A stretch of DNA of 64,000 nt, from the sequence record MZ956763.1, one strand, 5' to 3'. Shown piece after piece: positions 5,853 to 63,630 of this stretch. The stretch comes from a phage. Numbering within the stretch: the first letter of the stretch is position 1; every line of letters begins with the position of its first letter. The notes below the pieces were generated by a model. It did no database searches. It was not told the DNA's origin and saw nothing but the letters and a program-made list of their open reading frames with translations. Both the position numbers and the translations under genes were made by a program.

Positions 5853-6109
5853 TTTTACTCCCTCTAAAATCATTAACCTCATACATTACTGCAAAAAATT
5901 ATAAAAAGCAAGTTGACAATGTGCTTGACAAGGTGTTAATCTTTGCGAAGTGGGTTTTTACTTAAAAGGTTACTTAACAGTTTAACTATACAGATACTTT
6001 AAAACTCTTAAAAGATTATTTAATAGCTTTTAAAAAGCTTTAAAGTATAACGTATAGAATACGTTAAGATAAAAGATTAAAACTTAATAGTTACTTAAAA
6101 GAGGCTTAC

Positions 6110-6532
6110 ATGCAGAAAATGTTTGTTCACCCAGACATAGCTGACTTTGTTAGAGCTTTGCAGAAGTTGGAAGAACTTGACATTGCTGCTCAACGGGAAT
6201 ATGCTCACCATCACAGGAGAATGGTTGATATACAACATGAGATAGAGTTGTCTGAAAACTATGAAGATGACTTAAAATGCTCTGTATTTGAGCATATGAA
6301 AGATGTTGCTACAGCGAGACGTAAAGCTAAAGACACAGTTGCTTTACTAGATTCTCTTAAAAAGAGGTTGCAAAGTGGTACAGACCTGTGTAATCTAGCG
6401 TCACTGATTAACGATGTTGAAACTTCTTGGGATAGACATTACTATCCACGTTCTGAAAAGACACTTGACTTTTCTTCATCAGAAAACTTAAAATGTTCTA
6501 GAAAGAAACTTAACCAACTGAGAGAGAAATAA
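6110..6532 (+). CDS. hypothetical protein
   Basis: 140 aa ORF, first gene of plus-strand block after divergent promoter region. Confidence 0.45.
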   Translation: MQKMFVHPDIADFVRALQKLEELDIAAQREYAHHHRRMVDIQHEIELSENYEDDLKCSVFEHMKDVATARRKAKDTVALLDSLKKRLQSGTDLCNLASLINDVETSWDRHYYPRSEKTLDFSSSENLKCSRKKLNQLREK

Positions 6533-43393: not shown

Positions 43394-43642
43394 ATGGCAA
43401 CTATCCGCGCAACCGTTAACNAATTNNGCTTCTACTCTCTGGATGTTAAATTTGACCTTGTGGGCACTGATAACGCCTTTGAAATGGTGAAAGGTCTTAT
43501 CAGTCAGACCATCAAAGACTATAATCCTTCTGATGAGTTCTGGAAAGAAACAAAACAGGAAGTTCTTAAAGATGGTTATTCTTTTCACTATTGGGGTGAA
43601 AAAATTGTCTCTCTGTACTACGATAAAGAAGGCACTAACTAA
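43394..43642 (+). CDS. small hypothetical protein (array gene 12)
   Basis: start after conserved leader; Ns at 43421 and 43426-43427; followed by terminator. Confidence 0.45.
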   Translation: MATIRATVNXXXFYSLDVKFDLVGTDNAFEMVKGLISQTIKDYNPSDEFWKETKQEVLKDGYSFHYWGEKIVSLYYDKEGTN

Positions 43643-43680
43643 ACGCCGCAGCGGGGCTAAATAGCCCCAGATACCTTTAC

Positions 43681-43707
43681 AGCCCCTCTGAATAGGGGCT
43701 TTTTTAC
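43681..43707 (+). terminator. intrinsic terminator closing small-gene array
   Basis: AGCCCCTCTGAATAGGGGCTTTTTT. Confidence 0.6.
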
Positions 43708-43710
43708 GTC

Positions 43711-45300
43711 TTATACAATCCTTATACAAACCCTTTCCCTTTCCTTCCTAGAATCTTACTAGACCTTAAAAGCAATAACTCTATAGTCTACTCTATAGCC
43801 TTTTATCAAATCAACTTAAATATAAGCCCATAACCCGAAAGGGAAGGGCAACCATTTAAACGCTCTATAAAGCCCTATAACAACCTTATTAACCCAACTT
43901 AAGGGATTGCATTATCTCACCCTTAAAAGCCCTTTATAAAGCTTCCTAGAGCCTTAAAAGAATCTTATAAGGGTGTAAGCTTTATTATCTCGTTAGCTAT
44001 CTTGTGAATAACTAAAAAGGGCTATGAGATAGATTCTATCGAATCCTATTGTTAGTGTCTTAAAAGTATGTTATAGGGGCTATGAAGTAGCTTAAAAGTT
44101 GCTTAAAAGTTACGTAAAAGAGGTTATAAAGTTACGTAAATGCTAGCCCCCTTAACATTTTCTTAACAATTTCTTAACAATCCCTACATAGTTATGCTTT
44201 TAAGGCACTTGTTAGCAACTTGTTAGCCCCTTGTTAAATCTCTGTTAAGACCACGTAAAAGCCTTGTAAGAGTCTTTGACATAGCCTTAAAAGCTCCTGT
44301 AAAGCCCTATAAAGAGCTATCCATACAGTTGAGGGGTAGATACTAGGAAGAGACTTAAAAGGGCTTATAAGGGGCTATAGAGAGCTTTTAAGAGATATGT
44401 TTAGAGATTCACTAAGAGGAAAGGGAATGATAAGAAAAGAGATAGTGACCATGTTAATAGCTTGTTAAAAAGATTAAACACTTGTTAGGAACTTGTTAAT
44501 TATCTTTACAAAATAACCCTTAAAAATTAACTTGTTAGCTCTTGTTAGTCATCTGTTAAGATTCTGTAAAGCCTATTCAGTACTTGTTAGAAAACTGTTA
44601 CAACCTTGTTAGTTCTGTTAAGAATATGTTAAGACCTCTGAAGAGATGTTAAAGAGATGTAGCAACTGTTAAGAGATTGTTAATGATATTTTAAAATTTT
44701 GCAAAGGGGGTGTTAAGGGGCTGTTAAGGGCTACCAAGCAGATATACATCCTAATCAGATATTTTTGAGTTCCTTCAAAGACCCTAAAAAATGACTTGAT
44801 AGTCCTATTTTATAAAAATTTTAAAATTCTGAATAATTACCTATACAGTCTTCTAAAAATACAGGCATAAACAGGCTTATAAGATACCTTGTTAGTACCG
44901 TGTTAGACCTTGTGAGATAAGGTCTGTAAAGATATTCCTGTTAAGTTTGCTAAAACAGTCTATATAGAGGCTTAGTAATACCTAGTGAACATCTATAGAG
45001 GGTATCATAGGTAACCTAGAGATTAAGAGGTGTATAGGAGCTTCTAAGAGGGTATAGAGAGGTGGTTAAGGTGATTGTATAGGTTGTTAAGAAGGCTTGT
45101 TAGGAGAGTGTTTAGAAGGCTTGTTAGAGGGCTAGTTAGAAGGGTTATACAGAGGGGCTATTAAGACCACTAGATAGTTACTAAGATACTATATAGTACT
45201 ATATAACTATATAGAGAGTAAGATTAAGAAGGTTGTTAAGAAGGATAGATATTTTATTCACATATGATGGTGACCCAGAGGTTGGGACAACCGATAAAAT
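43711..45300. repeat. ORF-free region dense in degenerate short motifs (CTTGTTAG, CTGTTAAG, CTTAAAAG, CTATAAAG)
   Basis: about 1.6 kb with no ORF of 60 aa or more in any frame; dozens of motif copies at irregular spacing; between convergent gene blocks. Confidence 0.6.
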
Positions 45301-45312
45301 TTTATAAAAATT

Positions 45313-45338
45313 AAAAAGCCCCCAATTAAGGAGGCTCT
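45313..45338 (-). terminator. intrinsic terminator closing minus-strand block
   Basis: minus strand reads AGAGCCTCCTTAATTGGGGGCTTTTT; same 23-nt core as terminator at 7365. Confidence 0.5.
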
Positions 45339-45347
45339 TAAGATATT

Positions 45348-45941
45348 TTAAATCAGTGTTTCCAGAACTGTTTTTAATGATGACTTGGTTGTCTGATAAA
45401 AATGAGTAAATCCATTGTTGTTATCAAATACCTGCATCATGATATCATCTCCCTTGATTGGGTACACTCGGATATCATAGTGGAAACCGTTAAAGACACA
45501 AGAACCACTACAGAATGCTCTAAAATCATCCACTGAGATATACTCTTCATGACCTGTGATTTTTATACAAACACCTTTACTCGGCCTCTTAGGGTTGATA
45601 TCTTCCATCACAGACATATTCTGCCCACCAAGAGATACCATAGTGACCACTTTACGGTTCTTCTGTTTAAAGTACATTTTAACTTTCTGTAAAGTGTCTT
45701 CATAGAACGGATAAGACTTCTCTACAAAGATTCCTTCTAATGGCTCTTTACCGTTTACAATACCTCTGGTATGACGTACTGAGAAGATAAGTTGCTCTAG
45801 TATGTCAAGGCTTTCTTCGGAGAGTGCTTCCCGAATATCATTCCAGTCAAGTACTAGGTAGTTACCTTCAACTTCTTTTAAGTTATCTTTTTCCATATCT
45901 ATCACGCCATTATCGTAAAACTTGGTAAGCTGGAACTGCAA
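45348..45941 (-). CDS. hypothetical protein
   Basis: 197 aa ORF; last gene of minus-strand block. Confidence 0.5.
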   Translation of the reverse strand: MQFQLTKFYDNGVIDMEKDNLKEVEGNYLVLDWNDIREALSEESLDILEQLIFSVRHTRGIVNGKEPLEGIFVEKSYPFYEDTLQKVKMYFKQKNRKVVTMVSLGGQNMSVMEDINPKRPSKGVCIKITGHEEYISVDDFRAFCSGSCVFNGFHYDIRVYPIKGDDIMMQVFDNNNGFTHFYQTTKSSLKTVLETLI

Positions 45942-52661: not shown

Positions 52662-53053
52662 AGATAATCCTCTTGTCTTCTGTAATTTTGAAAGAACAGG
52701 TACAGACCAATTTCAGAGGATGAATAGTAGATTAACTCTACCCTTTTTGATTCCTTACAGTGATTGGTATTCTTACCTTTCTTCGGTTTATTTGATTTTC
52801 TCATTAAGTCTCCTTTGTAGAACAAGGCAGACCTACAGCTTTAAGTAAGATGGTACAGTAATCCATACAACAAGTCAAGAACTATTGCAAGTTAAAAAAG
52901 TTGTTGACAAAGTACTTGACAAGGTGTAGGCTTATAAATACTTAGAAGATAACTTAAAAGGTTCCTCTAAAAAGGCTATTTAAACAGATATCTTTCTGGA
53001 TATCTATCTTTTATCTTAAAAGCCTTTTAAGAGGTCTTATAAGAGGCACACCA

Positions 53054-53425
53054 ATGAAAAACAGAACAAACAAAGGCCAGTTTAAAAAAGGCCAGTCTGG
53101 AAACCCATCTGGAAGACCCAAAGGCTCTCGTAACAAAAGTTCACTCGTAAAAGCTCAACTGACCATTGATAATTCTGCTGAGTTTGCTGCAAAGTTGTTT
53201 GAGGCGATTGTTACAAGGGACGCTGCTAAGCTTGCAGAGTTCGGGTTAAACACAGATGACGTAACCATCAAGAGTATGATTGAGGTCGGTAAAACTATCT
53301 TTACTCACTCAGCAGGTGAGATGAAAGCACTTGCAGCAGACACTAAGAAGACTCCTGATAATGGTGGTCAACAACAGACAGATAACAAACCAACGTTCTC
53401 TGCTGTAGCGACTCTCAAAAAATAA
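53054..53425 (+). CDS. hypothetical protein with basic N-terminus
   Basis: 123 aa; N-terminal KGQSGNPSGRPKGSRNK. Confidence 0.45.
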   Translation: MKNRTNKGQFKKGQSGNPSGRPKGSRNKSSLVKAQLTIDNSAEFAAKLFEAIVTRDAAKLAEFGLNTDDVTIKSMIEVGKTIFTHSAGEMKALAADTKKTPDNGGQQQTDNKPTFSAVATLKK

Positions 53426-53506
53426 TTTTAAAAGGTGTTGACAGACTCTACAAAGTTACTCTAAAGTCTGTCACATCAAACAACAAATGAGAGAAGAGAG
53501 TAAAAT

Positions 53507-54922
53507 ATGAGCGAGTTATTTAAACATGCGCACCTTCATGCAGGTCGAACTGAAAATGGTGCTGTAAACCATACTTCATCAATGTCTGCTCTGGTAGACT
53601 TCTACAAAGCTGCTGGTTCAAGCCGTAGCAATGTAGAAATCTTACCAGACCTGTTCTACAAAGCTTTGCATGAGGATGTTGATGTTGCAGTTCGTATTTT
53701 ACTGCATATGCGAGATGTACGAGAAGGTATGGGTGAGCGTAAAGCCTTCAGGACTGTTTTGCTTCAAGCAATTGAAGATAAAGTTTTAGAGTCTACACAG
53801 GTTCTTCGCATTATGGATAAGATTGCAGAACTTGGTCGTTTTGATGACTTCAAAATCTTCGTAGGTACTCGCTTCGAGACAGATGCCTTCAAACATTTAG
53901 AAGCAGCATTACTAGACCCTGCAACAGCAGGTTTGGCAGCTAAGTGGTTGCCACGAGTCAAACCACGTCACAAACAGTTTGTAAAACGTTTCTGCAAGTT
54001 TGCCAACTTGAGTGAGAAAGAGTACCGCACACTGTTGTCTGCACTATCTGATACAGTTGAGCAAAAAATCTCTGCTAATGAGTTTGGCAAGATTGACTAC
54101 AGCAAGATTCCTTCACTTGCTGCTGCACGTTACCAAAAACTGTTTAACCGTAAAGATGGAGAACGCTACAAAGCTTACATTGAGTCTTTATCAAAAGGTG
54201 AGACTAAGATTAACGCTGGTGCTGTTTACCCATACGATGTGATTAAATCTGTCAAGCATGGTAATGCAGATGTTGCTAATGAGCAGTGGAAAGCACTACC
54301 AAACTGGATGGCAGAAGGTGAAAACATCTTGTGTATGACTGATGTTTCAAGCTCAATGTCTTGGGTGAATTTTGGCTCCATTACTGCTCTGGATATTGGT
54401 GTATCACTTGCATTGTATGTGGCAGAACGCAATACAGGTTGCTTTAAGAATGAGTTGATGGTTTATTCAACAAACCCTCACTTCATCGAACTTAGTGGTG
54501 ATTTACGAAACCGCCATCGTCAGGTGATGCGACATGTTGAATATGGTTCAACTAACTTACAAGCAGCTTTTGACCGTATTCTTGAGACAGGTAAAAGAAA
54601 CAACTTGACTCAGAAAGATATGCCAAGTAAGCTTATCATCTTCTCCGATATGGAGTTCAATCAGGTTGATGGAGCTAACGGTCGTACAAACTTTGAAGCA
54701 ATTCAGAGTAAGTACAAGAAAGCTGGATACGAAATGCCACAACTGGTATTCTGGTACTTAGCAAACCGTAATGGTACTTGCGAAGTGTCTGTTAAGGATA
54801 ACGGTGTAGCAATGGTATCTGGTTTCTCTCCAGCCACTTTAAAAGCTCTGCTTGGTGGTGAGAAGTTTGACCCAATCAGCGTAATGCTCAAAGCAGTAAT
54901 GATTGACCGCTATATCTGGTAA
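53507..54922 (+). CDS. vWA-domain protein, possible Ro60/TROVE-like RNA-binding protein
   Basis: 471 aa; C-terminal MIDAS-like DVSSSMS; sits immediately upstream of the tRNA/ncRNA cluster; TROVE assignment is inference. Confidence 0.4.
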   Translation: MSELFKHAHLHAGRTENGAVNHTSSMSALVDFYKAAGSSRSNVEILPDLFYKALHEDVDVAVRILLHMRDVREGMGERKAFRTVLLQAIEDKVLESTQVLRIMDKIAELGRFDDFKIFVGTRFETDAFKHLEAALLDPATAGLAAKWLPRVKPRHKQFVKRFCKFANLSEKEYRTLLSALSDTVEQKISANEFGKIDYSKIPSLAAARYQKLFNRKDGERYKAYIESLSKGETKINAGAVYPYDVIKSVKHGNADVANEQWKALPNWMAEGENILCMTDVSSSMSWVNFGSITALDIGVSLALYVAERNTGCFKNELMVYSTNPHFIELSGDLRNRHRQVMRHVEYGSTNLQAAFDRILETGKRNNLTQKDMPSKLIIFSDMEFNQVDGANGRTNFEAIQSKYKKAGYEMPQLVFWYLANRNGTCEVSVKDNGVAMVSGFSPATLKALLGGEKFDPISVMLKAVMIDRYIW

Positions 54923-54939
54923 AAAGTTTTAAAAAGGGT

Positions 54940-54968
54940 ATTGACAATGTGTTTGATACCCTTTAATA
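54940..54968 (+). promoter_or_regulatory. sigma70-like promoter upstream of tRNA cluster
   Basis: TTGACA, 17 bp, TAATAT. Confidence 0.5.
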
Positions 54969-55087
54969 TGTTCTACATAGAAACGAAACGAGAGCTTTTC
55001 TAAGATACTGAAAAATATTTTAAAAAAGTTCTTGACAATCACTAAAAAATAATGTTAAAGTGGTTACATAGAGTTTGAAAAGTTTAT

Positions 55088-55164
55088 CTCTGTTTAGCTC
55101 AGCTTGGTAGAGCGTTCCGTTTGGGGCGGTAAGGCCGGAGGTTCAAGTCCTCCAACAGAGACCA
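55088..55164 (+). tRNA. tRNA-Pro(TGG)
   Basis: manual fold: 7-bp acceptor, D-arm TAGCTCAGCTTGGTAGAGC, anticodon loop TTTGGGG, T-loop TTCAAGT, CCA encoded. Confidence 0.65.
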
Positions 55165-55171
55165 AATTAAT

Positions 55172-55249
55172 GTTCCAGTAGACAAAATGGTAAAGTCACC
55201 ACTCTTTCAAAGTGGATATCTGAGGGTTCAAATCCCTTCTGGAACGCCA
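55172..55249 (+). tRNA. tRNA-Glu(TTC)
   Basis: manual fold: acceptor GTTCCAG/CTGGAAC, anticodon stem CCACT/AGTGG, loop CTTTCAA. Confidence 0.6.
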
Positions 55250-55254
55250 GTTTT

Positions 55255-55330
55255 GACAGAAGACCAATTACAGCAAACTTAATCTTATTCATCTGAAGGT
55301 AAATCGGACAAAGAAGAGATTTGGTCTGGT
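55255..55330 (+). ncRNA. stem-loop element A of a 5-member family
   Basis: 5' CAGAAGACCAATTACAGCAA pairs with 3' TTGGTCTGG; between tRNA-Glu and tRNA-Met. Confidence 0.4.
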
Positions 55331-55340
55331 CATTAAGAAT

Positions 55341-55417
55341 TGCGGGTATAGAGAAAGGGCGTCTCACATGTCTCATTAGCATGGTATCGGCAGGTTCGAC
55401 TCCTGCACCCGCCTCCA
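55341..55417 (+). tRNA. tRNA-Met(CAT), possibly initiator (1-72 mismatch)
   Basis: anticodon stem CATGT/GCATG, loop CTCATTA; T-arm GCAGG-TTCGACT-CCTGC; position 1 unpaired. Confidence 0.5.
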
Positions 55418-55420
55418 AAT

Positions 55421-55488
55421 TTACAGAAGACCGTTTACAGCAATATTTATTAAATTTTTAGCGGAAAAATTGAAAGATACGGTCTGGT
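55421..55488 (+). ncRNA. stem-loop element B
   Basis: 5' CAGAAGACCGTTTACAGCAA, 3' ACGGTCTGG; internal hairpin AATTTTTAGCGGAAAAATT. Confidence 0.4.
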
Positions 55489-55500
55489 AATACTAAACAT

Positions 55501-55577
55501 GGTTAGGAAGCACATAAGGTATGTGCGGTCGCCTGTTAAGCGAATGGCACAGGGTTCGAATCCCTGACTAACCGCCA
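55501..55577 (+). tRNA. tRNA-Asn(GTT)
   Basis: D-stem GCAC/GTGC, anticodon loop CTGTTAA, T-loop TTCGAAT. Confidence 0.65.
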
Positions 55578-55646
55578 AATTTAGGAGAGAAGCGATTGCT
55601 CACCGATTTGTAAGGTGCAAGTCCTTAGCCTGAATAGAAATTAAAT

Positions 55647-55734
55647 GTGTCGTTATCCCGTAGATGGTAGCGGTGGGGACTGTAAATCCCTTGTCATTGA
55701 GACTCGGTAGGTTCGACTCCTACACGGCACACCA
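55647..55734 (+). tRNA. tRNA-Tyr(GTA), long variable arm
   Basis: 88 nt; anticodon stem GGGGA/TCCCT, loop CTGTAAA; acceptor GTGTCGT/ACGGCAC. Confidence 0.55.
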
Positions 55735-55739
55735 ATAAA

Positions 55740-55817
55740 GGCTATGTAGTTTAATAGGGTTAAAATACTCCCCTGTCACGGGAGATGATGTGAGTTCAAG
55801 TCTCATCGTAGCCGCCA
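55740..55817 (+). tRNA. tRNA-Asp(GTC)
   Basis: acceptor GGCTATG/CGTAGCC, anticodon stem CTCCC/GGGAG, loop CTGTCAC. Confidence 0.65.
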
Positions 55818-55902
55818 AATTATAATAAGTATTTCAAAATGATGTTTTGAGAGGGCTATTTAGCCCCTCCCTTAAAGAGTTCTTACGAGTATTCTTTAAA
55901 GG

Positions 55903-55979
55903 AGCAGAAGACCAAATACAGCAAGTTACTTAAAATTTCAAGCCAATTTAATTTTGAAAAATTTAAAACTTGGTCTGGC
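55903..55979 (+). ncRNA. stem-loop element C
   Basis: 5' CAGAAGACCAAATACAGCAA, 3' TTGGTCTGG. Confidence 0.4.
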
Positions 55980-55988
55980 TCAACAAAT

Positions 55989-56123
55989 TTACAGAAGACC
56001 GTTTACAGCAAAACTTAAACAATCTATTTCTCGGTAAAGAAAAGGAGAAGGTTCGATTCCTTCACTCGGCAGATGTCGAGTTGGTGTAATGGTAGCACTT
56101 AAGATGGTAAACAACGGTCTGGT
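55989..56123 (+). ncRNA. Y-RNA-like (YrlA-type) tRNA-mimic element D
   Basis: terminal stem AGACCGTT/AACGGTCT encloses T-arm-like GAAGG-TTCGATT-CCTTC, acceptor-like hairpin ACTCGGC-AGAT-GTCGAGT and D-arm-like GTG-TAATGGTAG-CAC, i.e. tRNA modules in permuted order with no anticodon arm. Confidence 0.45.
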
Positions 56124-56271
56124 AATTATCTTTGTAGATAAGTTATTAAGCTTACCTGTGAGTATGCGACCACAAAGGGTGAAAGGGTAAATTCTAGATT
56201 TAAACCCAAAAAGGCACATCGCTACAGACCTTAAGCAAGTCTGGGTAGCTTATCTACAAAGATAATTTAAT

Positions 56272-56347
56272 GGAAGTGTAGCAGAATGGTGATGCGGCAG
56301 ACTTTTAATCTGACAGGCGATGGGTTCGAATCCCTCCACTTCTACCA
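56272..56347 (+). tRNA. tRNA-Lys(TTT)
   Basis: anticodon loop CTTTTAA; acceptor GGAAGTG/CACTTCT; weak T-stem. Confidence 0.55.
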
Positions 56348-56351
56348 AAAT

Positions 56352-56428
56352 GGTTCAGTCGCAGATAAGGTAATGCAAGGGTTTCATAAGCCCTATGAAT
56401 GTGGGTTCGATTCCCATCTGAACCTCCA
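56352..56428 (+). tRNA. tRNA-Met or Ile2 (CAT)
   Basis: acceptor GGTTCAG/CTGAACC; anticodon stem AGGGT/GCCCT, loop TTCATAA. Confidence 0.55.
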
Positions 56429-56430
56429 AT

Positions 56431-56505
56431 TGTGGGTTAGCATAAATGGTAATGCAAACGGCTGATAACCGTTAGAAGAGGGTTCGATACCCTCACCTAC
56501 AACCA
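56431..56505 (+). tRNA. tRNA-Ile(GAT)
   Basis: anticodon stem AACGG/CCGTT, loop CTGATAA; T-arm GAGGG-TTCGATA-CCCTC. Confidence 0.6.
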
Positions 56506-56520
56506 ATTTCAATAGAGTTG

Positions 56521-56549
56521 TTGACATTGAGATGTGACTACTTTATAGT
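56521..56549 (+). promoter_or_regulatory. sigma70-like promoter inside tRNA cluster
   Basis: TTGACA, 17 bp, TATAGT. Confidence 0.55.
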
Positions 56550-56842
56550 AACTAAAATACTTCACAATATGTATAATTCAAACACCAATACATGAGCGTT
56601 AGACGTAACACAATGTGGGGAAATTTGTTGTACATATTCTGAATAGTTTTCGTTGCGTAGCGTCTATTTTGCAAATTTAAAATAAATGCAAACGACAATG
56701 TTTTTCTGGCAGTAGCTTGATAGGCTAAACACCAGTGAGGTCTTCCAATCCCTCATCAAAGAATTTGGCGTACTCGCCCACGGTATGATTAATAAGGTGG
56801 GCATCTTTAAGGGCTTTCTAAGAGAGTCTTTAAAGATAATTA

Positions 56843-56924
56843 CGGGGCGTATCTCAGCGGTCTTCTAAACCGCCGTTAACCGAGTAAGTGGAGTATGCGG
56901 GTTCGAGTCCTGCCGCCTCGACCA
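56843..56924 (+). tRNA. atypical tRNA-like gene, possibly tRNA-Arg(TCT)
   Basis: good acceptor (CGGGGCG/CGCCTCG), T-arm and a perfect hairpin GCGGT-CTTCTAA-ACCGC, but no canonical D-arm and a 23-nt region before the T-arm. Confidence 0.3.
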
Positions 56925-57067
56925 ATTTAGTTAGCAGATTACTTAGACGACCTAAGCGGGTCTTCCTGTAGGGAGGTGGTCTGTATCTCATGTTTTCCAG
57001 AACATGTAAATAATCTGAGAAGGGGCTTTACAGTGTTGAGATAATACGGTAAGCTTCGAATTATAGT

Positions 57068-57150
57068 GTGGGACGATGTTAAGACTCTAAGGCATGAGCA
57101 ACGGCCTCCAAAACCGTTTCAAAGGGGTTCAACTCCTCCGTCCCATGCCA
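57068..57150 (+). tRNA. atypical tRNA-like gene, possibly tRNA-Trp(CCA)
   Basis: acceptor GTGGGAC/GTCCCAT, T-loop TTCAACT, anticodon-like loop CTCCAAA on stem ACGG/CCGT; D region about 7-8 nt too long. Confidence 0.3.
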
Positions 57151-57163
57151 AAGTCTTATTAGG

Positions 57164-57251
57164 GGTAGGTAGCGGCTAATGGCAGCCAAACAGTCTTGAA
57201 AACTGTTGCCACTGTAGAGATACGGTGAGGGTTCGACTCCTTTACTTACCG
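57164..57251 (+). tRNA. tRNA-Ser(TGA), long variable arm
   Basis: anticodon stem ACAGT/ACTGT, loop CTTGAAA; D-loop TAATGGCA; CCA not encoded. Confidence 0.55.
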
Positions 57252-57407
57252 CCTAATAAGATTTAAAGCCAAGCTTCATTCGGATGTCGCTTTGGTATCC
57301 CGCGTGTATTGTCGTACACACTGATAAAACACCTAGTAGGTGTCACGGAGAAGAGATAATATCAAGCTCTCCAAAGGTTCTAGTCACCGGATTAAACAAG
57401 ACTATGC

Positions 57408-57429
57408 AAAGACCTTTTTAGGTCTTTTT
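57408..57429 (+). terminator. intrinsic terminator inside tRNA cluster
   Basis: AAGACCTTTTTAGGTCTTTTT. Confidence 0.5.
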
Positions 57430-57508
57430 AGAGGGCTTCTAAGGTTATTACAGCTTGTTGTGGAACCTTGTTGCTTAGGTTCTTAGAAGTTCTCTAAAAA
57501 GATTTAAT

Positions 57509-57586
57509 GGGAGATTGACGGTAATTGGTAAACCTACCATCCTTAGAAGTTGGTGTTTGAGGGTTCGAATCCCTTGTCTCCTACCA
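57509..57586 (+). tRNA. tRNA-Leu(TAG), short variable loop
   Basis: anticodon loop CTTAGAA; A73 discriminator; T-arm GAGGG-TTCGAAT-CCCTT. Confidence 0.5.
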
Positions 57587-57593
57587 AATTAAT

Positions 57594-57669
57594 GCAGGTG
57601 TAGCAAAATGGTTATGCGGCTGACTCTTAATCAGTAAGACGATGGGTTCAATTCCCTCCACCTGTACCA
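57594..57669 (+). tRNA. tRNA-Lys(CTT)
   Basis: same scaffold as tRNA-Lys(TTT); anticodon loop CTCTTAA. Confidence 0.55.
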
Positions 57670-57675
57670 GACATT

Positions 57676-57751
57676 GGGGTCATAGTTTATATGGTTAAAA
57701 TTCGAGTTTTGCAAACTTGGGAACTGAGTTCAATTCTCAGTGACTCCACCA
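57676..57751 (+). tRNA. tRNA-Ala(TGC)
   Basis: anticodon loop TTTGCAA; T-arm CTGAG-TTCAATT-CTCAG. Confidence 0.6.
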
Positions 57752-57757
57752 ATTAGT

Positions 57758-57832
57758 GCATCCATAGTTTAAACGGGAAAATTACAGTCTTCCAAACTGA
57801 GGTTGAGGGTTCGATTCCCTCTGGATGCTCCA
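57758..57832 (+). tRNA. tRNA-Gly(TCC)
   Basis: perfect acceptor GCATCCA/TGGATGC; anticodon loop CTTCCAA. Confidence 0.6.
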
Positions 57833-57839
57833 AATTAAT

Positions 57840-57915
57840 GCTCCTATCGTATAATAGGCTATTACGGTTGCCTTGTAAGCAACTTATCAGGGTTCGAATC
57901 CTTGTGGGAGCACCA
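57840..57915 (+). tRNA. tRNA-Thr(TGT)
   Basis: anticodon stem GTTGC/GCAAC, loop CTTGTAA. Confidence 0.65.
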
Positions 57916-57916
57916 A

Positions 57917-58006
57917 TTCAGAGGTCAAGTGAAAGACCGCTGGTGTCAACTGAAGACCGTAACAAATTCCACGGAGTTGAGTTAGCGGCACAACTTCAGA
58001 CCTCTT
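57917..58006 (+). ncRNA. stem-loop element E (related to A-D)
   Basis: outer stem AGAGGTC/GACCTCT; contains GAAGACCGTAACAAA resembling the family 5' motif. Confidence 0.3.
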
Positions 58007-58010
58007 TCAC

Positions 58011-58085
58011 ACTCGCTTAGTTTATATGGTAAAACACCACCCTTACAAGATGAAGAAAAAGGTTCAAGTCCTTTAGTGAGTACCA
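58011..58085 (+). tRNA. tRNA-Val(TAC)
   Basis: acceptor ACTCGCT/AGTGAGT, D-stem GTTT/AAAC, T-arm AAAGG-TTCAAGT-CCTTT, anticodon loop CTTACAA on a weak stem. Confidence 0.45.
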
Positions 58086-58086
58086 T

Positions 58087-58164
58087 GTTCCAGTATCCCA
58101 ATTGGCAGAGGATGCAAGCTCAAACCTTGTATTAGTGACGGTTCGAATCCGTCTTGGAACACCA
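58087..58164 (+). tRNA. tRNA-Leu(CAA), short variable loop
   Basis: Leu-like D-loop CAATTGGCAGA; anticodon loop CTCAAAC; A73. Confidence 0.5.
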
Positions 58165-58183
58165 ATTTTAAGAGGCTATTTAG

Positions 58184-58741
58184 ATGAGATATTTGAAGTA
58201 TGCTTCATGGATTTTCCTAGCTTTACTAGAGCCATTTGCAGCAACCCTATCAGTCATCTTAGCACCTTTCGTAGTTCCATTCTACAGTGAGAAGAAAGGA
58301 CACCTACCTTTTGGATTCAGATGGATGGAGACCTATGACAACCCAATTGATGGTGATGAAGGTCACGTTAAAAGATGGGCTAAGATTAGAAAGATTGGTA
58401 AGCTGGGTGTCTACATGCAGAGAGTTGGATGGCTCTGGAGAAACAAAGCTTATAACTTCTCTTACCATGTATTAGGAAGAGATGTAAAAGATGTTACTAA
58501 GTGGAAAGGTAATATCAACGTAAGTTCTGACCCTGAAGATAATCAGACAGGTTATCTCCTAATGTGGAACAACAATGCTTGGGGATTATTCGCTTTTATT
58601 CCGTCAATTAAAATCTTTGGTAAACAGTTTTACTGGAGAATTTATGTTGGATGGAAACTAAAAAGTGTTGTCCCAGAAGAAAGAGCATTCTCAAGGGAAA
58701 GAGTTATGTTGGCATTCTTTATTCATCCACTGAGAAAGTAA
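58184..58741 (+). CDS. hypothetical membrane protein embedded in tRNA cluster
   Basis: 185 aa ORF starting just after a tRNA; N-terminal hydrophobic segment. Confidence 0.5.
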   Translation: MRYLKYASWIFLALLEPFAATLSVILAPFVVPFYSEKKGHLPFGFRWMETYDNPIDGDEGHVKRWAKIRKIGKLGVYMQRVGWLWRNKAYNFSYHVLGRDVKDVTKWKGNINVSSDPEDNQTGYLLMWNNNAWGLFAFIPSIKIFGKQFYWRIYVGWKLKSVVPEERAFSRERVMLAFFIHPLRK

Positions 58742-58749
58742 AGATTTAA

Positions 58750-58825
58750 AGGGGATTAGTTTACAAGGTTAAAACCTCGGTCTTTGAAATCGAAGAAGTT
58801 GGTTCAATTCCAACATCCCCAGCCA
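58750..58825 (+). tRNA. tRNA-Gln(TTG)
   Basis: D-stem GTTT/AAAC; anticodon loop CTTTGAA; T-arm GTTGG-TTCAATT-CCAAC. Confidence 0.55.
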
Positions 58826-58827
58826 AT

Positions 58828-58906
58828 GCTCCATTACTCCAATTGGCAGAGAGGCCAGACTTAAAATCTGTGTTATGTATCGGTTCGAATCCGATATGGA
58901 GTACCA
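58828..58906 (+). tRNA. tRNA-Leu(TAA), short variable loop
   Basis: D-arm CTC-CAATTGGCAGA-GAG; anticodon loop CTTAAAA; A73. Confidence 0.5.
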
Positions 58907-58911
58907 ATTTT

Positions 58912-58987
58912 AGCGGTATAGCATAATTGGCAATGCAACAGTCTCTGAAGCTGTCCTATTAAGGTTCAAATCCTTATACCGCTGCCA
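58912..58987 (+). tRNA. tRNA-Gln(CTG)
   Basis: perfect acceptor AGCGGTA/TACCGCT; anticodon loop CTCTGAA. Confidence 0.6.
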
Positions 58988-59018
58988 CTTCTAAGGGTTC
59001 TTACGAGAGTCCTTAAAT

Positions 59019-59094
59019 GTGGCCTTATCATAAATGGTAATGACCCATGCTGTGAACATGGTCTATACGGGTTCAAATCCCGTAGGTCACCCCA
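59019..59094 (+). tRNA. tRNA-His(GTG)
   Basis: anticodon stem CCATG/CATGG, loop CTGTGAA; C73 discriminator. Confidence 0.65.
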
Positions 59095-59099
59095 ATTTA

Positions 59100-59177
59100 T
59101 AGTCCAAGTAGCTTATATGGTTAAAGCGCGTGTCTGAAAAACATGAGAAGAGGGTTCAAATCCCACTGGACTACCAA
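59100..59177 (+). tRNA. tRNA-Phe(GAA)
   Basis: perfect acceptor TAGTCCA/TGGACTA; anticodon stem CGTGT/ACATG, loop CTGAAAA; 3' end reads CAA. Confidence 0.5.
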
Positions 59178-59192
59178 TTTCAAAGGTGCTTA

Positions 59193-59927
59193 ATGAAAGA
59201 GATGACAGAACAAGGTAAGGAGATTTTTAATCTCTTAAAAACCGGTAAAGGGTTTTCTAACCCACTTATTACTGGTGCAGCAGTTCTCGGTGGAACCGTA
59301 GCTGCCTCTACATCACTTGTAAGCTCTATTAGCTCTGTAACAGACCCTACAATGAATGAGAAACTTGTTGCTGCTGGACTTACAACAGTCCTTCTAAACA
59401 GCTTTACAACAAGCCTGACAAGCACTACAGCAACTACTAAGACCCTAACAGACTATGGTCAAAAGTCTATTGATGAGTTTTCATCACGTATGCAGGTAGC
59501 AAAGGGATACTCCAATGTTATGGGTGCAGCAGGAGAACAAGTTGGTTGTACACCGTTCAGTGGTATTATGGGTGTTGCTACAGAATATGGTCAAAAAGCT
59601 ATTGATACGATTAACAGTACACTAGAGAGTGTTAACGATGTATTAAGTGACTTACAAGACGCTATTGACAAGGGTCTTGATACTGTTTCTGATTTAGCTA
59701 ACCAAGCTGTCAGTAAGATTAATGAAGGTATCTCAAAGATTACAGCTTATGCAGATGAAGTTGTGCAGATGATTGAAGAAGAAGCTGCCCTTATTGCAGA
59801 GTACCTTAAAACGAATATCAATGGGTTCTTAGCAGGTATCTTACCAGACTGGTTTGATGATGCTTGTAAAACTGGTGTGATTGACACTATTGCAACACCA
59901 GAAATGAAGAACGCATTACAGAAATAA
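59193..59927 (+). CDS. hypothetical Ser/Thr-rich protein
   Basis: start set at ATG after tRNA-Phe (MKEMTEQ); track ORF start 59130 would overlap the tRNA. Confidence 0.5.
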   Translation: MKEMTEQGKEIFNLLKTGKGFSNPLITGAAVLGGTVAASTSLVSSISSVTDPTMNEKLVAAGLTTVLLNSFTTSLTSTTATTKTLTDYGQKSIDEFSSRMQVAKGYSNVMGAAGEQVGCTPFSGIMGVATEYGQKAIDTINSTLESVNDVLSDLQDAIDKGLDTVSDLANQAVSKINEGISKITAYADEVVQMIEEEAALIAEYLKTNINGFLAGILPDWFDDACKTGVIDTIATPEMKNALQK

Positions 59928-59928
59928 T

Positions 59929-60021
59929 GGAAGATTAACCCTAAAAGGTAAGGGAGCAGTTTGCTAAACTGCCAGTAGCTGAGAAATCGGTGTACCAGTT
60001 CAAGTCTGGTATCTTCCTCCA
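59929..60021 (+). tRNA. tRNA-Ser(GCT), long variable arm
   Basis: 93 nt; anticodon stem GCAGT/ACTGC, loop TTGCTAA; T-arm ACCAG-TTCAAGT-CTGGT. Confidence 0.6.
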
Positions 60022-60025
60022 ATTT

Positions 60026-60101
60026 GAATCCGTGACAGAAATGGCTATGTGCCTGTCTGCAAAACAGGTTTATAAGGGTTCGAGTCCCTTCGGATTCTCC
60101 A
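60026..60101 (+). tRNA. tRNA-Cys(GCA)
   Basis: anticodon stem CCTGT/ACAGG, loop CTGCAAA; U73 discriminator. Confidence 0.65.
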
Positions 60102-60524: not shown

Positions 60525-60545
60525 TTCTATTTGCGGAGGCGCTTA

Positions 60546-62147
60546 ATGGACTTAAATGCTGTTAAGCAGAAGCGAGTGGAAGATGTTAGGAAAGTCCTAG
60601 CTGGAGAGTTGGGGCTTTCTGATGAAGTAAAAGAAATTATCAAATCATTCGGTAAAGACCCCTCTAAATTCCTTCCAACTCAAATTCTGACTTTATTAAG
60701 ATACACACCAGACCAAGTTCGCCTTATCTTTAAATTGATGACTGATAAGAACTATGTAGCCCCTCAGCCGGGTTCTCAAGAGGTCTTTTTAAACACTAAT
60801 GCTGACTTGGTTCTCTATGGTGGTGCTGCTGGTGCTGGTAAGACTGCTGCATTGTTAATGGACTCTTTAAGATTTATTGAAGACCCTAACTATAATGCTG
60901 TGTATTTCCGTCGAAATACAACACAGCTACAAGGTGGTTTATGGCCTGCTGCAAAGAAACTATTTGGTAAGTTTGGTGGGGTCCCTCACGAGCAGAAAAT
61001 GACTATCACATTCCCTTCTGGGGCAACTATCAAGTTTACCTACCTAGAACTTGAAAAGCACGCTGAAGGTCATCAGGGTATTGAATACTCAGCTATTTAC
61101 TTTGACGAAGGTACACACTTCTCCGCTTCACAGATTTCATACCTACAAACACGTCTACGTTCTGGTGCTGAAGGTGATTCATACATGAAAATTTCCATGA
61201 ACCCAGACAGAGACCACTTTATTTACGATTGGGTAGAACCATTCTTAGATGAAGAAGGTTACCCAGACCCTGAAAAGTGTGGTCGTATTCGTTGGTATGT
61301 AATGAATGATGGTGTGATGGTTTCTGATTGGGAGAGAGACAAGATTCTTGAAATGTTCCCTCTTGAGATTCCTCAAACATATACATTCATCTCTGGTACG
61401 ATTGATGATAACCCAATTCTTGACTTCTTAGAACCAAAGTATCGCGGTAAGTTGGAAAACAACACTCCTGTAAACGTTGCAAGACTTCGTTTCGGTAACT
61501 GGAAGGCTCGTGCAGAAGGTTCAAACTATTGGCAAAGACAATGGTGTGAAATTGTTGATTCACTCCCAGAAGATGTATTCGATGTCAGAGCATGGGACTT
61601 AGCAGCAACTTTACCATCTGAGGTTAACCCTAATCCAGACTGGACAGCGGGTGTTAAGATGGGTAAATCTAAAAAAGACGGTTGCTATTATATCATTGAT
61701 GTAGTAAGATTTAGAGATAGACCCTCTGGAGTCGAAACACAAATTAATTTGACTGCTGAAAGTGACGGTAAGCGAACTGGTATTTTTATCCCTCAAGACC
61801 CAGGCGCTGCTGGTAAATCCTACGCAACATCCCTCATCAGGAAACTTGCCGAGAAAGGCTATCGTGCAAGAGCTAAACCAACAAATAAAGATAAAGTTAC
61901 CCGATTTGCGGGGTTTTCTGCTGCTTCTGAAGCTGGACTTGTAAAAGTTTTGAGAGGTAGTTGGAACGAAGCTTATTTCCAAGAGCTTGAAGGCTTTTGT
62001 GGTGATGGCAAAACTAAAGATGACCAAGTGGATGCTACCAGTGATGCTTTCAACAGTCTTAACGAAGTTAAATTATTCAAGCCACCATCAATGGGTGCTC
62101 ACACAGACTTAGTGAGAGGAAACCCATATGAGGGGCTTAGACGTTGA
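60546..62147 (+). CDS. terminase large subunit
   Basis: Walker A LYGGAAGAGKTAAL near N-terminus; start set at ATG with GGAGG SD; followed by portal-like gene. Confidence 0.7.
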   Translation: MDLNAVKQKRVEDVRKVLAGELGLSDEVKEIIKSFGKDPSKFLPTQILTLLRYTPDQVRLIFKLMTDKNYVAPQPGSQEVFLNTNADLVLYGGAAGAGKTAALLMDSLRFIEDPNYNAVYFRRNTTQLQGGLWPAAKKLFGKFGGVPHEQKMTITFPSGATIKFTYLELEKHAEGHQGIEYSAIYFDEGTHFSASQISYLQTRLRSGAEGDSYMKISMNPDRDHFIYDWVEPFLDEEGYPDPEKCGRIRWYVMNDGVMVSDWERDKILEMFPLEIPQTYTFISGTIDDNPILDFLEPKYRGKLENNTPVNVARLRFGNWKARAEGSNYWQRQWCEIVDSLPEDVFDVRAWDLAATLPSEVNPNPDWTAGVKMGKSKKDGCYYIIDVVRFRDRPSGVETQINLTAESDGKRTGIFIPQDPGAAGKSYATSLIRKLAEKGYRARAKPTNKDKVTRFAGFSAASEAGLVKVLRGSWNEAYFQELEGFCGDGKTKDDQVDATSDAFNSLNEVKLFKPPSMGAHTDLVRGNPYEGLRR

Positions 62148-62154
62148 TAGCTAG

Positions 62155-63630
62155 GTGAGAAGAATGGCAGATATTACAGAAACACAAGAAAGCTTACCAC
62201 CATTTAGAATGGGTGAAGTAGGTTCTTTGGGTCTGAAGGTTAAGAATGGAAGAATCTATGAAGAACCTCGTCAGGCACTAAGGTTCCCTGAAAGTATTAA
62301 AACTTTCCAATTAATGATGCGTGACCCTGCTGTAGCAGCATCTGTAAATATTATTAAGATGTTTGTCAGAAAAGTCAACTGGAGATTCGTACCTCCAAAG
62401 GGAAAAGAGCAAGACCCTAAAATGCTTGAAAGAGCAGACTTCTTTAATTCTTTAATGGATGACATGGAGCATGATTGGGCAGATTTTATTAACTCTGTAA
62501 TGTCATTCTGCACTTATGGGTTCTGTGTTAACGAGAAAGTTTATAAGAAGCGTCAGGGTAAAAAAGGAAAGTACCAGTCAAAATTTGATGATGGTCTAAT
62601 TGGATGGGCTAAATTACCAATCAGAAACCAATCAACACTTGATAAGTGGTATTTTGACGAAGACTTTAGAAAAGTTACTGGTGTTAGACAGAATCTGAGA
62701 AATGTTTCACATATTGCTGGAGCAATTAATCTTGGAGAAAGACCACTAACAAGAAAACTTCCACGAGCTAAATTCATGCTGTTTAAGTATGATGATGAGT
62801 ATGGAAACCCAGAAGGTCGTTCACCATTACTTAATGCCTATGTACCGTGGAAGTATAAAGTTCAGATTGAAGAGTACGAAGCTGTTGGTGTTTCAAGAGA
62901 CTTGGTAGGCATGCCAAAAATTGGTTTACCACCAGATTATCTGGATGAAAATGCAGAACCTGAAAAGAAAGCTTTCGTACAATACTGCAAAACTGTTGTT
63001 AACGATATGATTGCTAATGATAGAGCAGGTTTAATCTGGCCTAGATATATCGACCCAGATACTAAAGAGGATATTTTCGAGTTCTCATTAGTTTCTAGAC
63101 AGGGTGCTAAAGCATATGATACAGGTTCTATCATTGACAGATATTCCAAGCAAATTATGATGGCATTTATGTCAGATGTTCTTGCTATGGGTCAGTCAAA
63201 ATATGGTTCGTTCTCTCTTGCAGATTCTAAGACAAGCCTATTAGCAATGTCAGTAGATATTCTGCTGAAGCAAATTAAGAACGTAATTAACCGTGATTTA
63301 GTTGCACAGACTTACGCTCTTAATATGTGGGATGATGAAGAACATGTACAAATCACATATGATGATATCGAAACTCCAGACCTTGAAGCAATTGGTTCTT
63401 ATATTCAGAAGACTGTTGCAGTAGGTGCTTTGGAAGTTGACAAAGAGCTATCTAACAAACTTAGAGAGCATATTGGTCTTCCTCCTGCTGATGAGTCTCA
63501 GCCAGTATCTGAAAAGCTTTCTCCAAATAGCCAAAGCCGTTCAGGAGATGGTTATAAGACCGCTGGGGAAGGTACTGCAAAGACACCTTCAGCGAAAGAC
63601 CCAAGCACAGCAAATAAGGCAAATAAATAA
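62155..63630 (+). CDS. putative portal protein
   Basis: 491 aa, directly downstream of terminase large subunit; call by position and size. Confidence 0.5.
   Translation: MRRMADITETQESLPPFRMGEVGSLGLKVKNGRIYEEPRQALRFPESIKTFQLMMRDPAVAASVNIIKMFVRKVNWRFVPPKGKEQDPKMLERADFFNSLMDDMEHDWADFINSVMSFCTYGFCVNEKVYKKRQGKKGKYQSKFDDGLIGWAKLPIRNQSTLDKWYFDEDFRKVTGVRQNLRNVSHIAGAINLGERPLTRKLPRAKFMLFKYDDEYGNPEGRSPLLNAYVPWKYKVQIEEYEAVGVSRDLVGMPKIGLPPDYLDENAEPEKKAFVQYCKTVVNDMIANDRAGLIWPRYIDPDTKEDIFEFSLVSRQGAKAYDTGSIIDRYSKQIMMAFMSDVLAMGQSKYGSFSLADSKTSLLAMSVDILLKQIKNVINRDLVAQTYALNMWDDEEHVQITYDDIETPDLEAIGSYIQKTVAVGALEVDKELSNKLREHIGLPPADESQPVSEKLSPNSQSRSGDGYKTAGEGTAKTPSAKDPSTANKANK

Follow-up and report, generated by a model that had tools for sequence, protein, structure and literature searches.

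The concatemer junction of phage T7 is, judged by organisation and not by descent, the closest described analogue of the locus reported here. In T7, three copies of the word CCTAAAG lie within the repeat of 160 bp and eight immediately to its right, and the right-hand repeat has more of them on its left side; these short-repeat arrays were reportedly named SRL and SRR by Dunn and Studier in 1983. A model of staggered nicks with fill-in synthesis has been proposed for T7. Arrays of sites recognised by the small subunit of terminase are represented by the R sites of lambda cosB and the pacL/pacR boxes of SPP1, and phased 11-bp arrays by the parC iterons of plasmid R1, which are bound by ParR. 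The function of the T7 short-repeat arrays is itself not established, and most single insertions at the T7 genome ends are tolerated (10.1101/2024.10.10.617714). The PhageMaP data for the Felixounavirus Bas63 refer to genes, which were the only targets.

Direct terminal repeats (DTR) are already known for the genus Felixounavirus. For UAB_Phi87, Bal31 digestion combined with run-off sequencing located the ends and gave a DTR of 608 bp; no cos ends were seen in heat-treated digests, and the loss of two defined fragments on Bal31 treatment indicated fixed ends (PMC4837284). In the same study, Felix O1-like phages are placed in a DTR group by their large terminases. For Pr103Blw, another Felixounavirus, a DTR of 581 bp was obtained with PhageTerm (PMC8303462). 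In the Felix O1 genome paper, short terminal repeats were merely inferred, and the gap described below was not discussed (PMC3185647).

A non-coding gap between converging gene blocks

The window, that is the whole stretch of 64,000 nucleotides of phage DNA that was analysed (MZ956763.1), is of the Felixounavirus (Felix O1-type). The last plus-strand gene stops at 43642 and the first minus-strand gene at 45348, leaving a gap of 1,705 bp (43643-45347). An earlier sequence-only reading had described the region as devoid of ORFs of 60 aa or more and as lying where plus-strand and minus-strand gene blocks converge. Both statements hold: even ORFs of at least 30 aa are absent from all frames of the gap, and terminator-like hairpins bracket it. 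The longest gap ORF (29 aa) is read from a variable 12-bp tandem repeat. Three ambiguous bases (N) at 43421 and 43426-43427, inside the last plus-strand gene to the left of the gap, point to an imperfect assembly or consensus there. The gap divides into four zones (left flank, repeat, AT-rich block and right flank), which are listed here together with the bracketing hairpins.

43653-43705, plus strand: two terminator hairpins ending the plus-strand block, GGGGCTAAATAGCCCC and then AGCCCCTCTGAATAGGGGCT with a T run
43701-44145, plus strand: left flank, 445 bp, top strand C-rich, with the words CTTAAAAG, CTATAAAG, CTTATAAG and CTCTATAG
44146-44735 (±2), plus strand: predicted DTR, 590 bp, from alignment to UAB_69 and ZX4221, present as a single collapsed copy
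44736-44870, plus strand: AT-rich, conserved, motif-free block, GC 0.26, beginning with AAGCAGATATACA
44871-45312, plus strand: right flank, 442 bp, top strand G-rich, with the words CTTGTTAG, GTGTTAG, TATAGAG and GTTGTTAAG
45314-45339, minus strand: terminator hairpin ending the minus-strand block, from the terminator scan

On the plus side, the terminator scan placed a terminator-like hairpin at 43681-43700. The hairpins of the plus-strand block (43653-43705), with folding energies of about -20 kcal/mol, are the sole strong consensus structures in an alignment of 21 genomes; for this evaluation we relied on absolute folding energies, since the z-scores of the terminators are inflated by near-zero energies of the shuffled sequences. 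Outside the terminators, sliding consensus folding of the 21 genomes gave energies near zero throughout the gap. A search of Rfam gave no match with E<0.1 in the gap, and a permissive scan gave three matches at chance level, all located at the terminators. The sequence-only reading had itself named a conserved small protein or RNA as what would speak against its proposals; by ORF search, Rfam and consensus folding, we found no conserved small ORF, RNA family or consensus RNA structure in the gap.

Identification of the direct terminal repeat by homology

As one of the candidate roles of the region, the sequence-only reading had proposed a packaging or terminal-repeat boundary, and among its proposals this is the one that gained support from related phages. 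The gap matches 257 phage records, nearly all from Felixounavirus or relatives, of which 187 cover at least 80% of the query. The 618 bp DTR annotated in the UAB_69 record aligns to positions 44144-44737 of the window. In the ZX4221 record, an exact repeat of 591 bp stands at each end; the left end (GCCCCCTTAACA...) corresponds to 44146 and the right end (...GTTAAGGGCTACC) to 44735. The opening point of the pEP20 record coincides with this right boundary. At both boundaries, the limits taken from UAB_69 and ZX4221 are 2 nt apart. Together with the experimentally mapped UAB_Phi87 ends (PMC4837284), these records show by homology that 44146-44735 is the repeat of about 590 bp found at both ends of the virion DNA. 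For this isolate, the DTR limits are placed by homology.

The second copy of the DTR is absent from the window, and the repeat sits in mid-window between converging, terminated units because the assembly, which is circularly opened, collapsed two copies into one. The DTRs of UAB_Phi87, UAB_69, ZX4221 and Pr103Blw (581-618 bp) are about 90% identical to the window repeat, share its boundary sequences and are located between the same converging genes, without any essential difference. The repeat is not a new kind of element. Some related records mark only bare 'repeat_region' features. The internal word architecture of the repeat, described below, appears to be undescribed; the papers and records examined give coordinates for the repeat without an analysis of the arrays.

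Short-word arrays in the gap

The dozens of related short words that the sequence-only reading had noted were recovered by counting. The degenerate word CTDDWWAG (CT[TGA][TGA][TA][TA]AG) is present 43 times on the plus strand of 43701-45312, against 4.3 (sd 2.0, maximum 13) in 1000 dinucleotide shuffles, and its density is 26.7 per kb, compared with 2.1 per kb in the other 62.4 kb, a roughly 13-fold difference. Among individual words, CTTGTTAG has 10 copies in the gap and 2 in the other 62 kb, and CTATATAG has 6 copies in the gap and 0 elsewhere in the window (both strands counted); CTTAAAAG has 8 plus-strand copies in the gap, where 0.42 would be expected. A literature search for the short words themselves gave nothing relevant. 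The quoted tandem string was confirmed at 44207-44249 as four 11-bp units, and the TATATA-rich patch at 45187-45215 as three ACTATATAG units. The latter lie in the right flank, which also holds a 12-bp tandem repeat at 45084-45143; this repeat (TTGTTAGAAGGC, about 4.9 copies) is the source of the spurious 29-aa ORF. Local features of the gap are as follows.

44026-44046, plus strand: E1 mini-cassette GAGATAGATTCTATCGAATCC, overlapping palindromes, single copy in the window
44144-44181, plus strand: left DTR boundary, TA followed across the boundary by GCCCCCTTAACA, with two further CTTAACA units 11 bp apart, as in ZX4221 and UAB_69
44207-44249, plus strand: four tandem 11-bp units, ACTTGTTAGCA, ACTTGTTAGCC, CCTTGTTAAAT and CTCTGTTAAG
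44452-44728, plus strand: main array of 17 plus-oriented TGTTA(A/G) cores on one helical face
44703-44735, plus strand: right DTR boundary, GGGGGTGTTAAGGGGCTGTTAAGGGCTACC up to the boundary, as at the right end of ZX4221 and the start of the pEP20 record

A large-scale inverted symmetry of the two flanks was considered and dropped, the local alignment score of 26 against 21.5±2.7 in shuffles being not significant; only the base-composition skew mirrors between left and right flank. The GC content is lowest at 44800-44849 (0.18), inside the AT-rich block. Two matches to the DnaA-box sequence TTATNCACA flank the DTR in inverted orientation. Elsewhere in the window, two divergent promoter regions (5900-6110 and 52890-53050) have the same layout, with tandem TTGACA (...GTTGACAAnGTnCTTGACAAGGTGT...) and a leader carrying several copies of CTTAAAAG/CTTATAAG.

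Two tiny palindromic cassettes, E1 (GAGATAGATTCTATCGAATCC) and E2 (TTGGTATTGTTACCAATCCC), were recognised in comparisons of related phages, the window carrying one E1 and no E2. In 36 related loci, many of them from IMG/VR, both cassettes are confined to the 1.6-kb gap, where each occupies at least 5 different positions in both orientations, and their presence varies even among close relatives. E1 and E2 resemble miniature mobile or shuffled elements in their behaviour.

Phased TGTTA(A/G) cores and the boundaries of the repeat

The word TGTTA occurs in the gap 30 times on the plus strand and 4 times on the minus strand, and no plus-oriented run of it is present in the left flank (43701-44145). 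Three of the minus-strand copies, seen as CTTAACA units 11 bp apart, stand exactly at the left DTR boundary and represent TGTTAAG words in minus orientation (conservation 0.94 at 44144-44181), and two plus-strand copies stand at the right boundary. With minus copies at the left and plus copies at the right, the two ends of the DTR are imperfect inverted copies of TAGCCC(CC)TTAACA, one reading TAGCCCCCTTAACAnnnnCTTAACA and the other, on the opposite strand, TAGCCCTTAACAnnnnCTTAACA.

The commonest distance between successive TGTTA(A/G) cores is 11 bp (12 of 29 spacings), and the spacings within the main array are 9-11, 20, 31, 33 and 39 bp. The sequence-only reading had proposed an analysis of motifs and of their periodicity; besides the excess of words over chance, this analysis revealed that the 21 cores within the DTR are phased with a period of 10.4 bp (R=0.79). 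The phasing is highly significant against random placement (p<0.0005) but only modestly so (p~0.03) under a stricter null in which the 11-bp tandems are retained and the remaining spacings are jittered, and indels in multiples of 11 would be expected from unequal crossing-over in 11-bp tandems alone. The conservation within the DTR is 0.97 for the cores and 0.835 for the remainder, and core positions range over 0.93-0.97 against 0.75-0.83 for the spacers (MWU p=4e-12). The core words are therefore shown to be more constrained than the DNA between them, and their layout is tied to the DTR boundaries. A scan of viral contigs for three spaced TGTTAAG says nothing on specificity; many of the matches listed were unrelated, including giant-virus bins.

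Conservation of the gap across genera

Suspvirus (SUSP2) and Mooglevirus (Mordin, Sf13 and SFPB) have the same gap in the corresponding position, with a length of 1.60-1.67 kb. In these genera the gap DNA is 77-82% identical to that of the window, whereas for the 197-aa protein encoded next to it the amino acid identity is only 47-59%. In the alignment of 21 genomes, the conservation per 50 bp is mostly 0.75-0.95 in the gap and 0.46-0.85 in the flanking coding ends. The gap is thus better conserved between genera than the neighbouring genes. Two stretches of the gap dip to 0.56-0.63, where indels lie. One is in the left flank (43701-44145), which is mostly conserved at 0.75-0.94 but at only 0.59-0.63 around 43993-44092, partly because the E1 cassette is missing from the other genomes; the other, 45093-45142, is the least conserved block (0.56) because of 12- and 24-bp indels, which are copy-number differences between relatives. 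The AT-rich block at 44736-44870 is conserved at 0.90 though it is motif-free. The 10.4-bp period was also detected in SUSP2, Mordin, Sf13 and SFPB, in which the word counts and polarity are likewise the same.

A more distant comparison was provided by the Erwinia phage phiEa21-4 of a fourth genus, Kolesnikvirus, which has a syntenic gap of 1.44 kb (L042, 16472-17912). TGTTAAG is found 11 times in this gap, against 8 times in the other 43.5 kb examined, and the AAGCAGATATACA box is kept together with a related left-boundary motif; in the comparison of boundaries, the inverted motif was absent from the right boundary of phiEa21-4. In its flanks, CTTCTAA(G/A) (9-12 copies) and CTTCTCAG (4 copies) replace the CTTAAAAG-type words. 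That the flank word is swapped while TGTTAAG is kept suggests separate readers for the two word classes. The presumptive repeat of phiEa21-4 is shorter, about 440 bp.

Search for the binding protein

The sequence-only reading had also raised the possibility of a binding array for a phage DNA-binding protein. Such a role fits the conserved cores, their helical phasing and their strand polarity, but the binder itself was not found among ten neighbouring proteins, for none of which was a function recognised by comparison with PHROGs and Pfam. The packaging genes that could be assigned lie outside the gap; they are the large terminase gene listed here and, directly after it, the portal gene (62155-63630).

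60531-62147, plus strand: large terminase subunit, which would be expected to act at the junction (phrog_979 'terminase large subunit', E=8e-234)

A small terminase was not recognisable in the window, and neither a small terminase nor its recognition site is annotated in the related records and papers examined. The protein encoded at 53054-53425 and containing DUF5681 was considered as a candidate for the small terminase, and was dropped as no supporting match was obtained: its 60 homologues carry no informative names, and no sequence match was found in NCBIfam or PDB. Its AlphaFold model is of low confidence (pLDDT 69, pTM 0.36), with a helical hairpin only, and a Foldseek search of the model gave no match with E<1. 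This basic protein is the first one after the promoter region at 52.9 kb and is followed, within 53054-55000, by a protein with DUF2828 and DUF7788, which is assigned in PHROG to 'RNA-binding protein' and is homologous to a gene called Ro60-like in a published screen. The DUF2828/DUF7788 gene is followed by 24 tRNA genes in 55088-60101, and then by the large terminase and portal genes.

Discussion

We consider that the gap probably serves this Felix O1-type myovirus as its concatemer junction, its DNA being packaged with short exact direct terminal repeats. Replicating genomes would be joined head to tail through the DTR, and a terminase complex would recognise the junction and cut at both DTR boundaries. 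The inverted TAGCCC(CC)TTAACA at the two boundaries would fit a scheme in which opposite strands are nicked and the repeat is then duplicated by fill-in synthesis, leaving every genome with a complete repeat, as in the staggered-nick model for T7. The TGTTA(A/G) cores, about 30 in number and nearly all in one orientation, are putative binding sites by which copies of a phage protein would be lined up along a single face of the helix. This protein could be the small terminase or another factor for packaging or end processing, and the resulting nucleoprotein structure would position the terminase cuts. The arrays in the flanks, CTTAAAAG/CTATAAAG on the left and TATAGAG/GTTGTTAAG on the right, might then act like the short-repeat arrays beside the T7 repeat.

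The likeness to T7 lies in a short exact DTR in non-coding DNA and in an A/T-rich word of 7-8 bp ending in AAG, which is repeated in direct orientation within the repeat and in both flanks; even in appearance the words are similar (CCTAAAG in T7, CTTAAAAG and CTATAAAG in the window). The two phages differ in virus family and terminase, and no sequence homology was found, the matches of the gap being Ounavirinae-type records and the words not being the same; in addition, the window repeat is 3.7 times longer, carries a second and dominant class of words, TGTTA(A/G), phased at 10.4 bp, and has an inverted pair of boundary motifs that is missing in T7. The T7 region holds promoters and starts the early genes, whereas the blocks flanking the gap in the window are transcribed towards the ends. 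With lambda cosB, SPP1 pac and R1 parC, the arrays share several short sites near helical spacing, an arrangement in which an oligomer can bind one face and bend or wrap the DNA, but no homologous protein or site sequence was found in the window, and its sites, about 30, are far more numerous than those of cosB and pac.

A replication origin was also among the roles proposed from the sequence, with the repeats as iterons and 44736-44870 as the unwinding element. That the gap is, or also contains, an origin seems unlikely to us. Phased direct repeats do adjoin a block of GC 0.26 (0.18 at 44800-44849) that is conserved at 0.90 though free of motifs, and the gap holds two of the window's four TTATNCACA matches, at 44003-44011 (minus) and 45254-45262 (plus); both DnaA-like boxes are, however, lost in UAB_69 and in the other genera. 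Iterons are typically 17-22 bp in length, whereas the unit here is a core of 5-6 bp with a pitch of 11 bp. No initiator-like gene is recognisable nearby, and the change in cumulative skew at the gap tracks the switch of gene orientation. An origin would in any case not exclude the documented role as terminal repeat.

Alternatively, the arrays might be sites of a transcription regulator or of a nucleoid-like protein, serving as a reservoir or silencer instead of as packaging signals. The location of CTTAAAAG and CTTATAAG words, which cluster in the leaders of both divergent promoter regions (about 5950-6100 and 52950-53045), shortly after the tandem TTGACA promoters, suggests a regulatory role for the CTTAAAAG class, and the exchange of the flank word for CTTCTAA(G/A) in phiEa21-4, with TGTTAAG retained, is as expected if the two classes have different binders. 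For the gap as a whole, we regard this explanation as quite improbable: words of the TGTTA class hardly occur outside the gap, and their arrangement is linked to the DTR boundaries; the gap is enclosed by two terminators and has no gene downstream that could be regulated; and no regulator was found. It is very improbable indeed that the gap represents a small protein, a non-coding RNA or a decaying, functionless minisatellite. Tiny 'hypothetical proteins' are annotated in some GenBank records (for instance, of 25 and 49 aa in UAB_69), but ORFs of at least 30 aa are absent and the longest ORF lies in the indel-rich repeat, while an RNA is opposed by the lack of Rfam matches with E<0.1 and by consensus folding energies of about zero except at the terminators. 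The tandem copy number does vary at 45084-45143, as in a minisatellite, but the conservation of the gap across genera above that of the neighbouring genes argues against neutral decay.

Returning to the concatemer junction, a more speculative extension, which we think unlikely, is that the phased cores, about 30 in number, and the inverted end motifs could build a large, wrapped nucleoprotein structure specific to Ounavirinae, in which one unannotated protein would coat about 0.5 kb of the DTR and have tasks beyond guiding the cuts. Such a structure, if true, might for instance pair the repeat copies for concatemers, prime end replication or shield the incoming DNA ends from host nucleases; it would also explain why 1.6 kb of non-coding DNA is more constant than the surrounding genes.

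Felix O1-like phages are widely used in diagnostics and biocontrol of Salmonella and E. coli, and most of the deposited genomes are opened arbitrarily, with spurious small ORFs in the gap. The DTR at 44146-44735, as predicted here, fixes the true ends, which matters for annotation, rebooting, engineering and packaging-based vectors. The result is a testable model of a packaging signal for a feature that was already known in the genus. A testable handle on how the terminase of this subfamily may find its site and cut is offered by the TGTTA(A/G) array, which is conserved and phased, and by the inverted motif at the boundaries.
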